Shown piece after piece: positions 44,190-46,717 of a stretch of 57,044 nucleotides of DNA. The stretch comes from Archangiaceae bacterium. Lineage in GTDB: Bacteria > Myxococcota > Myxococcia > Myxococcales > Myxococcaceae. The notes below the pieces were generated by a model. The model searched no databases. It had not been told where the DNA came from and was given only the letters and a program-made list of their open reading frames with translations. The DNA lies in contig JAYVCD010000415.1 in assembly GCA_043750125.1 (NCBI GenBank), positions 1 through 57,044 on the forward strand. Direction: 5' to 3'. The position numbers and the translations under genes were made by a program. Numbering within the stretch: the first letter of the stretch is position 1; every line of letters starts with the position of its first letter.

Positions 44190-44330
44190 TCGCCAGCTTC
44201 ACCTCGTGGGGGACGAGGTGGCCATCGTGTTGTCGGGCATGAACGACTGCTTTCTCGCCGACGACCAGGTCGCTGAAGGTGAGGCCCGCGTCTCCGCGCG
44301 TGAACTCAGTCTTGTCGTGGGGTGCGCGCT
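44190..44330 (-). pseudogene. DUF5666-like fragment
   Basis: KTEFTRGDAGLTFSDLVVGEKAVVHARQHDGHLVPHEVKL resembles a DUF5666 OB-fold segment; no start. Confidence 0.45.
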
Positions 44331-44343
44331 CGAATGCCTCCCG

Positions 44344-44589
44344 ATGACCACGCTGGAAATTCCCGTGGCCGGCTTGCCGCGGGCAGAGGTCGTCAGCAAC
44401 TGGAATGCACCCCGCTCGGGCGGGTGTCGGCACCAGGGTGTCGATCTCTTCGCGAGCCGAGGGACGAGCGTGGTCTCGGCAACCGGCAACGCACACACCA
44501 CGCCCCCGCACCTGCACTTTGGCGTCTACCGGGTCGGCCTCTGGCGCACCCGGGCGGTCGACCCCGTGCCGCTGCTGCTCAACGAGTGA
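44344..44589 (+). pseudogene. M23 peptidase remnant with internal deletion
   Basis: RHQGVDLFASRGTSVVSAT joined directly to GNAHTTPPHLHFGVY; the central YAHL/GYVG region is absent. Confidence 0.75.
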
Positions 44590-45958
44590 TCGCCGAACGC
44601 ACCGCCTCGAACAACTTGTCGGCAGGGCCGCTGGCTTCGAACACCACGACTCCCGCGGGCGAGAGGACCCGCACCCGCGGCAACAGGTCGACGCCGGGAA
44701 GCTCCTGCCTGGCGATCGGCGAGTCGAAGTCGACGATGTTCACCCGACGAACCGCGAGATTTTCTTGCCTCCCCGTCAGCTCGCGCAGCTTCGCGTCGAG
44801 GCCGATGCAGGCCTCACACCACGGCGCCCAGAAGTCGATCACTGTCCATTTTCCGGGGACCCCGGCCAAAGGCACCGCCTCGCCCTGGGTGACCAGCTCG
44901 AGCACGTCGCCCGCTGGAACCGTGGACCCTGACTCTTCGTGCATTCCCGATTCGAGGTGAAACAGCCGCCCAATCGAGAACTGGAGCACCACCGGCAAGT
45001 CCAGCTGCGCCCCGACCACCTGTCCCCAGACGTGGGCATTCACTTCGACCGACGCGCTCCAGTCGTCTGCAAAAGGGAAAGTGGCCCCGGCTCCGACGAA
45101 GAGATCCGTGCGGCCCTGATTGCCGTCGTCGGTGCGCACCCGCCCGTCCCATCGCTCGGCGAACTCGTGGGCGAGCGTGACCGAGACGCGTGCCGAAGGC
45201 TTTCCTCCCGCGGGAGTCGACGACGCGACCAGCCCACCGAGCAGCTGGGCCCCCGCCTGGTAGCCGTACCGACCCCGGTAGAGCGGCGCATGTCCAAAGC
45301 CAAAGGCCGCCAACGACCAGGGCCCAAAGCCGTACGTCGCATCCACCCCGAGCAGCGGGTCGAAGGTGCCCGTCCCGAACTGAAAGTGCTGATGCACTTT
45401 GCCCTGGTCCCCCAGTTGGTACGGGTTCTCGACGATGTTTCCCAAGGGCAGCGAGAGCCCCAGCCGCCCTCCCAACAACAGGTTTCCAAACGACAGCCCC
45501 GAATGGGCGAACACCTGCGCATCGCCCAGGCCCACCAGCGTCGCGTTGGGGTGGTGAATGTTCTGGTAGTCGAGGGTCTTCGGGGTGCCGTTCAAATCGC
45601 TGTAGGTGGTGAGGCTGTTGGCGAGGCGAAGGGGCAGCACCGCTTGGATCGCCAGCTTTTCAAACAGCCCGTACTCGGCCAACACCCGCAACTCGAAGAG
45701 CCACAGCGCGGTGTGGTGCTGCTGCGGGGGCTCGTCGCGTTGAGCGCAGATGGGGCCGATTTCAGGGCACGACTCATCGTGCGTCGAGTCCGCATGCGAG
45801 CCGGTCAGCGAAGCGTCCAACCGAAGGTGGTGCGGGCTGACCGTTGCGGACTGTGCGCCCCCGACCGGGAGCGTGGGATTGCTTCACCCTGCTCAACCCC
45901 CGGCTTCCGCTGCGGCCGAGGCGAAGAGTGCGAGACCCAATGCAAGAGCGCGTTTCAC
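44579..45958 (-). CDS. Candidate selenoprotein: signal peptide, UxxU motif, His-rich outer-membrane barrel-like domain, C-terminal thioredoxin (WCEAC)
   Basis: GTG 45958 gives MKRALALGLALFASAAAEA-GG*AG*SNPTLP..., in frame with ORF 44579..45820; TGA at 45893-45895 and 45884-45886; downstream SECIS-like hairpin; NIHHPNATLVGLGD; DFWAPWCEAC. Confidence 0.75.
45856..45873 (-). promoter_or_regulatory. Bacterial SECIS-like stem-loop
   Basis: mRNA CGCUCCC-GGUC-GGGGGCG: 7-bp stem, loop starting with G; the stem begins 10 nt after the second UGA. Confidence 0.65.
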
Positions 45959-46033
45959 AGGGGCCGTCGTAGTGCAGAAAAGCCATGCCCGTCGACTGCG
46001 AACGACCAGAGGTCACTCGGTGCGCGGGTCGAG

Positions 46034-46717
46034 GTGCAGCGTGCCGGGCTCGCCGCGGACCTTCCGGCCAGCTGGAAAGCGGCGCTCGCAGACGAGACGT
46101 CGAAGCCGTATTTCAAGGCCCTCGACGCATTCGTCACGTCCGAGCGGGCGACCCACACCGTCTTTCCCCCCAAAGCGCTGACCTTCGCTGCGCTCGCCCA
46201 TACGCCGCTCGAAAAGGTGCGGGTGGTGGTGATCGGCCAGGACCCCTACCCCACGGCGGGCAACGCCAACGGGCTCGCGTTCTCGGTCAACCCGGACAAG
46301 AAGGTCCCCGGCTCTCTGAAGAACATCTACACCGTGCTCGGGAAGGACGTGGGCACGACCCCTCCGACCCACGGAAATCTAGAGCAGTGGGCAGACCAGG
46401 GCGTGCTGCTGCTGAACACGGTGTTGACGGTGCGCGAAGGCGAGCCCAATTCCCACCACGGCAAGGGGTGGGAGGATTTCACCGGGGCGATCTTGAAGAA
46501 GATCAACGAATCGGATCAGCCGGTCGTGTTCCTGCTGCTTGGAGCCCAGGCCCAGAAGATGGCCTCGATGATCGACTTGTCGAAGCACTCGGTCGCGATC
46601 GCTCCGCACCCCTCGCCGATGAACACCACCCGCTTCCTCAAGAGCCGCCCGTTCTCTGCGGTCAATGCGGCGCTGGAAGCCAAGGGCCGCGGTTCGATCG
46701 ACTGGCAGCTTCGCTAG
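46034..46717 (+). CDS. ung: Uracil-DNA glycosylase (family 1)
   Basis: GQDPYP, GLAFSV, QGVLLLNTVLTV, SHHGKGWE, HPSP; start estimated. Confidence 0.95.
   Translation: MQRAGLAADLPASWKAALADETSKPYFKALDAFVTSERATHTVFPPKALTFAALAHTPLEKVRVVVIGQDPYPTAGNANGLAFSVNPDKKVPGSLKNIYTVLGKDVGTTPPTHGNLEQWADQGVLLLNTVLTVREGEPNSHHGKGWEDFTGAILKKINESDQPVVFLLLGAQAQKMASMIDLSKHSVAIAPHPSPMNTTRFLKSRPFSAVNAALEAKGRGSIDWQLR

Follow-up and report, generated by a model that had tools for sequence, protein, structure and literature searches.

The window analysed here spans positions 1 to 57,044 of contig JAYVCD010000415.1 from the Archangiaceae bacterium assembly GCA_043750125.1. On its minus strand lies a short annotated gene which very probably starts farther upstream than annotators have placed it, as a selenoprotein gene with two in-frame TGA codons and with a GGUC-loop hairpin as its selenocysteine insertion sequence (SECIS). 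Taken as a whole, the explanation that best accounts for the locus, namely a selenoprotein gene, a SECIS and the shared decoding of both UGAs by that one element, has in our estimate a probability of about 0.7. Translated with TGA as selenocysteine (Sec, U), the gene is complete (44579..45958, minus strand), running from a GTG start at 45958..45956 over 459 codons to a TGA stop at 44581..44579. Codons 1 to 21 encode a signal peptide (MKRALALGLALFASAAAEAGG, 45896..45958, minus strand), which was read from the sequence with no predictor run, and they are followed in order by TGA, GCA, GGG and TGA, by S-N-P-T-L-P-V-G-G and by 425 further codons to the stop. The first TGA (45893..45895, minus strand) is codon 22, the U that opens the motif U-A-G-U, and the second (45884..45886, minus strand) is codon 25; both are in frame, between the signal peptide and the 434 codons that follow.

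The hairpin, CGCUCCC-GGUC-GGGGGCG, has a 7-bp stem (45856..45873, minus strand) that overlaps the codons for T-L-P-V-G-G-A, and its apical loop, GGUC, occupies 45863..45866 on the same strand. The initial annotation had proposed this hairpin with its loop 17 nt and 26 nt after the two UGAs, and both distances were confirmed, the element being read on the minus strand from 45873 to 45856. The stem is made of six Watson-Crick pairs and one U-G pair, with a hairpin energy of -11.9 kcal/mol, and it is separated by 10 nt from the second UGA and by 19 nt from the first. In the consensus model of Zhang and Gladyshev for the bacterial SECIS (bSECIS), as outlined in PMC13188914, the apical loop measures 3-9 nt and the upper stem 4-16 bp, the distance from the UGA is 16-37 nt and the energy is -7.5 kcal/mol or lower. 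The window's loop of 4 nt and stem of 7 bp lie within these ranges, as do both of its UGAs at 17 and 26 nt, and among the homologues described below the stem measures 6-7 bp in 58/58 aligned Sec forms and the energies of the Sec forms span -8.9 to -12.0 kcal/mol. The consensus loop has a G in one of its first two positions, then usually a G or a U, a pattern followed by GGUC in 59/59 Sec forms. The earlier description of a bacterial-type SECIS placed just 3' of a UGA, with a G early in a small loop, thus agrees with the loop, stem, spacing and energy found here.

Taken alone, the hairpin stands at the level of chance. The fold of the 71-nt region was no better than that of dinucleotide shuffles (z = -0.72, with 44 of 200 shuffles folding as well), and hairpins that combine a GGUC(N) loop with 6 bp or more of stem number 602 in the assembly, so that some 5-6 are expected in each 57-kb window over both strands. 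A genome-wide histogram of the distances from such hairpins to upstream TGAs was uninformative because a 3-periodic background dominates it. A long-range helix in the minimum free energy (MFE) fold of the window, pairing the first UGA with downstream sequence, was rejected, as RNAalifold found no conservation of it. The case for the hairpin therefore rests on the comparison of homologues.

Six-frame searches with the barrel part of the protein across 368 genomes of the class gave 66 places in 65 genomes, all of which were typed for the motif, one (L061) by eye since it had been missed by the regular expression. The motif read UAGU in 35 genes, CAGU in 24 and CAGC in 7, with UAGC in none; the aligned first-position codon was thus TGA in 35/66 and TGC or TGT in 31/66, and the second was TGA in 59/66 and TGC in 7/66. 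A signal peptide lies in frame upstream in all homologues, usually with an A-x-A site of the signal-peptidase type right before the first U or C, and in-frame read-through is kept in the homologues (one or two TGAs each). On the protein tree the seven Cys-only (CAGC) genes form a single clade, and position 1 went from Sec to Cys or back on at least 3-4 occasions with the hairpin unchanged, as in the close pair L032 (UAGU) and L082 (CAGU). In a metagenome collection a pattern specific for UAGC had no match. A degenerate pattern gave mostly chance hits among the 79 matches listed; 10 of these were family members, all UAGU, and no UAGC was among the matches listed.

A comparison of the hairpin between TGA- and Cys-containing homologues had been put forward as a check on the prediction, with its absence from TGA-bearing genes as the outcome that would have spoken against it. 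A GGUC-loop hairpin of at least 6 contiguous bp was found at the same codons in 59/59 TGA-bearing genes and in 0/7 Cys-only genes. The Cys-only genes carry GGUG (three genes), GACA, GGCG, AGCG or CUCU at the position of the loop, and keep only 2-3 contiguous pairs with a mean MFE of -3.8 kcal/mol, versus about -11 kcal/mol in the Sec forms. Covariation was computed on 53 distinct rows of homologues that share kinship. Over these rows pairing is complete (100%) at the six inner positions of the stem, and at three pairs changes occur on both sides. Compensatory changes are seen at pair 30-45, which is CG in 34 rows, GC in 13 and UA in 6, and at pair 33-42, which is CG in 49, UA in 3 and GC in 1; pair 32-43 is UG in 35 and UA in 18. 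The covariation score was 0.207 against 0.091 in shuffles, none of 500 of which reached it, and sliding the 3' partner by 1-3 columns makes the score collapse.

Synonymous sites within the stem-loop are frozen in the Sec forms, where Pro is CCG in 58/58 and Val is GTC in 58/58, while codons 2, 3 and 7 adjoining the hairpin vary freely. The Arg that follows the hairpin peptide is encoded by AGG or AGA in 20/20 Sec forms versus CGN in 7/7 Cys-only forms, and the use of these rare codons (alignment columns 43-45) can be attributed to their pairing with the 5' arm. RNAalifold, given 34 UAGU sequences from -30 to +96, independently predicted the same hairpin, the only other helix being one of 3 bp. 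Stem length follows the form of the motif, with 7 bp in 32/34 UAGU and 6 bp in 22/24 CAGU genes (alignment columns 29/46), a difference that tracks clades. In divergent metagenomic UAGU members the hairpin lies at the same place with loops CGGGU, CGGGC or GGU and a stem ACCUGCC/GGCAGGU; in six such members (L119, L130, L161, L181, L156 and L188) the motif is followed by S-N-P-N-L-P-G-G-G or S-N-P-Q-L-Q-V-G. Since the hairpin is kept with compensatory changes and frozen synonymous sites in all TGA-bearing genes, and is lost in Cys-only genes, the comparison points to a genuine bacterial SECIS, to which SelB would be expected to bind.

The assembly (460 contigs, 6.17 Mb, 89.4% complete) holds much of the machinery that such an element would use, including a tRNA-Sec (65.1 bits, anticodon UCA), SelB (281 bits) and SelD, which itself has one in-frame TGA. 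Further candidate selenoprotein genes in the same genome give a local norm for the distance between UGA and loop. In SelD (L015) this distance is 16 nt, with the loop CGGGAC; in an FdhA-type molybdopterin enzyme (L107, G000:C416:1552-3453), where the U stands in C-N-R-T-U-H-A-P-S, it is 18 nt with the loop GGUCU; in an AhpC/TSA-like UxxC protein with the motif U-T-V-C (L109, G000:C66:2619-3740) it is 17 nt with the loop GGC. An FG-GAP / ASPIC-UnbV protein of 975 aa with a C-terminal thioredoxin domain (L108, G000:C204:4270-7194), whose TGA lies in C-V-R-D-L-U-S-D-Y-W, has 17 nt and the loop GGUCA on an 8-bp hairpin, and a small secreted barrel-like candidate (L110, G000:C313:3446-4156, minus strand) has 18 nt and the loop GGUCC on a 7-bp hairpin. 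At 17 nt the second UGA of the window's gene fits this norm of 16-18 nt in five other candidate genes, and the hairpin is canonically placed for the second UGA only.

The last of these candidates, L110, encodes 237 aa ending in GLGYSF with no Pfam match, and its signal ends in DARA followed by U-G-I-S-A-P-V-G, so that the TGA is the first mature residue; this TGA is kept in 8/8 of the matches in relatives that cover the N-terminus, across 6 genera, and two more matches are partial. The initial scans for further selenoprotein genes were not exhaustive, as their own filters missed the window's gene. A relaxed UxxU scan recovered it together with 10 other matches that resemble non-coding frames, and a search of the genome contigs for related loci gave 3 loci only.

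That the GGUC hairpin also recodes the first UGA is likely. No second conserved structure was seen, and position 1 exchanges Sec for Cys with the hairpin unchanged, so that a single SECIS for both UGAs is the best-supported reading; it is also favoured by the finding of a single tRNA-Sec-like gene above the Rfam cut-off in this genome and in the UAGU genomes G012 and G082, where the weaker matches are tRNA-Ser and tRNA-Leu. The initial annotation had proposed that one element recodes both UGAs. One conserved structure and two TGAs that both behave as Sec/Cys sites uphold that proposal; its weaker half concerns the first UGA, whose decoding by the hairpin is deduced and whose spacing is not the canonical one. 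We suggest that translation from the GTG at 45958 would produce the signal peptide and then meet two UGAs three codons apart, and that SelB carrying Sec-tRNA(Sec) would bind the loop of the hairpin where the mRNA enters the ribosome, delivering Sec. At the first UGA the same hairpin would most likely act over a distance 9 nt longer, the difference being absorbed by the single-stranded spacer, and within three codons the hairpin would have to be occupied once more, either by another SelB-GTP-Sec-tRNA complex or by one that has been recharged. Both UGAs would then be read as Sec, and the predicted product is an exported barrel whose mature N-terminus bears two selenols or a diselenide. We lean slightly towards the wider consequences of this scheme, in which the SelB-SECIS system would operate over both distances (17 and 26 nt) with only three codons in which to re-arm, and the protein would be the first known outer-membrane protein with a Sec at its mature N-terminus, holding a diselenide or bis-selenolate, maybe a Cu site, that is reset by a periplasmic thioredoxin.

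Several points weigh against a shared SECIS or against the explanation as a whole. In E. coli, shifting the stem-loop lowers the efficiency of recoding. The minimal stem-loop sits there at 11 nt from the UGA, according to the passage of PMC8659212 on that element, and the first UGA of the window, at 26 nt, falls outside the 16-18 nt norm of its own genome but inside the published window of 16-37 nt (PMC13188914). No UAGC form, that is, none in which the first UGA is decoded alone, occurs among the 66 homologues. Two consecutive UGAs should be costly, because 30-40% of ribosomes were given as recoding each UGA in E. coli in vivo (PMC4513850); this argument is offset by the fact that failure of recoding at these UGAs yields only a peptide of 21-24 residues. 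An Rfam cmscan of 45700..46000 at E <= 10 returned no SECIS family, only a chance snoRNA match of 14.3 bits. SelA was not found in the 89.4%-complete assembly, an absence for which gaps in the assembly are likely to account, since SelA is present in 5/5 relatives searched, one of them of the same genus. Because the homologues are related, the covariation counts overstate their independence, and because the Cys-only genes form one clade, the loss of the hairpin in 7/7 of them represents one event followed by drift rather than seven. To these may be added that the role in metal handling discussed below is drawn only from domain fusions and conserved His and Cys residues.

The spacing and the motif counts also bear on the most serious alternative, in which only the second UGA has the hairpin as its SECIS, the first being passed by near-cognate read-through or by a tRNA(ReC)-like tRNA that inserts Cys, so that there would be no true U-x-x-U. 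It would be in keeping with a first UGA that sits 9 nt beyond the spacing of all other SECIS candidates in the genome, and with the abundance of CAGU (24/66) while UAGC was never seen among the homologues typed or with the metagenome pattern specific for it, which ties the hairpin to the second position; tRNA(ReC)-like genes have moreover been described as enriched in UXXU genomes of other phyla (PMC13582414). We nevertheless regard it as unlikely, as only one tRNA-Sec-like gene exceeds the Rfam cut-off in this genome and in G012 and G082, position 1 is strictly TGA or TGC/TGT as befits a Sec/Cys site, and 26 nt is within the range given for bSECIS elements (PMC13188914). The first UGA might otherwise be assisted by a small helper structure of its own, a helix of 3-4 bp around the second UGA in which the GGN of codon 3 pairs with the AAY-CC of codons 6-7. 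All four of its pairs are possible in 13/34 UAGU versus 1/24 CAGU genes, a difference that again tracks clades, but the window itself has only 3 of the pairs, pair 15-24 is unpaired in 36/53 distinct rows, and the helix is absent from the RNAalifold prediction. Its 5' half would furthermore be inside the ribosome with the first UGA in the A site, where about 11 nt are occluded (PMC4513850), and we consider such a helper improbable.

Two other explanations would dispense with recoding or with the RNA element altogether. It is very improbable that the gene encodes no selenoprotein, with the TGAs being stops or untranslated, translation starting at the TTG at 45820 and the hairpin being incidental or a regulatory stem in the 5' untranslated region. 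Such a gene would agree with the public predicted proteins, all of which start past the TGAs, and with a hairpin that is thermodynamically unremarkable for GC-rich DNA, but its 413-aa product, though an outer-membrane barrel, would be left without any signal peptide. The frame, the signal peptide and U/C-A-G-U/C-S-N-P are conserved over the 66 genes, with Cys codons exactly at the positions of the TGAs, and in loci where the thioredoxin is a separate upstream gene its stop overlaps the ATG that opens the barrel frame. Scarcely credible is the proposal that the nucleotides are conserved by selection on the peptide L-P-V-G-G and not on RNA structure. The hairpin does overlap a conserved peptide, whose L, P and G the Cys forms keep as well, but the changes in the stem are compensatory and the invariant choices of CCG, GTC (58/58 each) and AGG or AGA (20/20) are confined to the Sec forms; the Cys forms use CCG, CCA and CCC for Pro and place V, T, A or S at the position of Val.

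Public annotation has passed over this N-terminus. Open reading frame (ORF) finding with translation table 11 returned only a 413-codon ORF from the TTG at 45820, and public collections hold the same short protein. The public protein set for the family comprised 70 clusters listed, all of them without the first 35 or more residues and starting downstream of the TGAs, and the public predicted proteins reach 89% coverage of the first 340 residues at best; neither the signal peptide nor the U/C-x-x-U/C site is therefore included in any of them. The names given to the family are "thiol-disulfide isomerase/thioredoxin" or "hypothetical protein".

The protein encoded by the gene joins two folds. The AlphaFold2 model (mean pLDDT 88.9), for which 63 homologues were aligned, shows a beta-barrel followed by a thioredoxin fold, and its first 20 residues are of low confidence. 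The barrel (44957..45829, minus strand) is an outer-membrane domain of the 12-strand type, similar to COG4313 / PF13557, and its best match in the PDB is 4rl8 (E = 6.4e-11, TM-score on the target 0.74), followed by FapF and FadL. PF13557 was above its cut-off in homologue L060 (29.8 versus 22 bits) and in several public relatives, and was not reported for the window's protein; residues 1-340 lie outside every Pfam and NCBIfam model, the weak matches to Trx and AhpC being confined to residues 343-445. The C-terminal thioredoxin-fold domain (44585..44848, minus strand) carries W-C-E-A-C at 44807..44821 and aligns in the model to thioredoxin structures; PF00085 scores 22.9 bits on it (cut-off 23.5) and exceeds that threshold in homologues. 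A second Cys pair lies in the motif C-P-E/D-I-G-P-I-C (45746..45769, minus strand), in which C43, P44, G47, P48 and C50 (mature numbering) are at least 90% conserved, with the invariant H39 and H60 near it. Invariant or near-invariant over the family are the head U/C-A-G-U/C-S-N-P-x-L-P and His residues at mature positions 39, 60, 114/115, 168 and 170.

The thioredoxin is fused C-terminally in the clade of the window and is a separate upstream gene in other homologues, so that the order of the domains is reversed. In the unfused loci (L025-L035, L062-L103) the TGA stop of the thioredoxin gene overlaps the ATG of the barrel gene as ATGA, which suggests translational coupling. A heavy-metal-binding HMBD domain (PF19335) is fused to the protein in 3/6 homologues scanned and in 12/70 listed public proteins, and one public protein has a cupredoxin fusion. 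From such fusions and from the conserved residues we would propose, with low confidence, that the N-terminal selenol pair may serve in the handling of a metal, perhaps copper.

The gene stands alone in the window. A convergent ORF (44206..44589, plus strand), whose H-L-H-F-G-V-Y end resembles an M23 peptidase, overlaps its stop by 11 nt, and a divergent ORF (45985..46717, plus strand) with the uracil-DNA-glycosylase motif G-Q-D-P-Y-P begins 27 nt upstream of the GTG start, both assignments being motif readings only. Around the unfused pair at L104 (G012:C1:8861000-8875000) are genes for a TauE/SafE-type exporter, an OEP outer-membrane efflux protein and an Fe/Mn superoxide dismutase, and around L105 (G061:C1:241000-256000) genes for a pyridine-nucleotide disulphide oxidoreductase and a PadR regulator; the thioredoxin is the only neighbour that the two loci have in common.

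If our explanation is right, the prokaryotic selenoproteome gains an exported barrel of the outer membrane that contains two Sec residues, and a Sec at the mature N-terminus together with the HMBD and cupredoxin fusions would point to selenium-based handling of metals in the cell envelope. The family also offers a test bed for the mechanism, as an invariant hairpin, a known local norm of spacing and the natural states UAGU, CAGU and CAGC are at hand to measure the reach of SelB and the time that it takes to reload. The named relatives are metagenome-assembled genomes of Myxococcaceae, and the family is present in relatives with complete genomes as well (for example G012 and G061).

Of the known elements, the hairpin most resembles SECIS elements of the E. 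coli fdhF type, being a stem-loop within the coding region just 3' of the UGA, with a small loop that has a G at its first two positions. In E. coli fdhF the loop itself reads GGUC. The passage of PMC8659212 on that element names only U17, G23, U24 and the spacer, and describes a minimal stem-loop of 17 nt with a spacer of 11 nt; the GGU of the present loop matches the essential G23 and U24, and the spacer of 10 nt from the second UGA is close to that of E. coli. Unlike fdhF, the hairpin of the window is a perfect helix without the bulged U (U17) in its 5' arm, it has no lower stem that includes the UGA, and it is preceded by two UGAs.

The protein itself, a predicted two-Sec exported outer-membrane barrel, appears to stand for a new family in a type of system that is already known. 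Catalogued UxxU families comprise a Prx-like thiol:disulfide oxidoreductase (PF00578), the metal-binding NF041115 and the FmdB family TIGR02605 (PMC13188914, PMC9312934), and like them the barrel family has two Sec residues, predicted in silico, in a redox or metal-binding motif of the C-x-x-C type. Unlike them, none of the three models matches the window's protein at E <= 0.1, and its U-x-x-U is a mature N-terminus outside any fold; the weak AhpC/TSA and Trx matches fall on the C-terminal C-x-x-C domain and not on U-x-x-U. The barrel family was not found by text searches in the 2022 or 2026 selenoprotein catalogues, nor by a paper search, and the GSU2204/MtrB type, the sole outer-membrane barrel in the 2026 selenoprotein table (PMC13188914), is unrelated to it. 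In fold the protein is like the COG4313 channel Pput2725 of Pseudomonas putida F1 (PDB 4rl8); it differs in having 13-14% identity to that channel and in adding the U/C-A-G-U/C tail, the C-x6-C motif, the invariant His residues and a thioredoxin partner.

The closest parallel for the decoding is found in the Group 4 [NiFeSe] hydrogenases, for which the decoding of both UXXU UGAs by a single downstream SECIS was raised in silico in 2026 (Front Microbiol, PMC13582414). The sharing of one element, which had been called mechanistically unusual for bacteria when the hairpin was first noticed, thus has a precedent as an idea, and UxxU families are already listed in reviews; so far, the decoding of two UGAs by one SECIS within an ORF has been raised in bacteria only in silico. 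In both cases two UGAs in a motif derived from C-x-x-C are accompanied by a single predicted SECIS, and in the hydrogenases the UXXU and CXXU forms share the architecture of the SECIS (PMC13582414). Unlike the hydrogenase, a cytoplasmic Ni-Fe subunit, the window's protein is an exported barrel from another phylum, and its genome yielded no tRNA(ReC)-like gene. Beyond the hydrogenase case, the barrel family offers 59 genes in the Sec form with explicit covariation, and a norm of spacing taken from the same genome.

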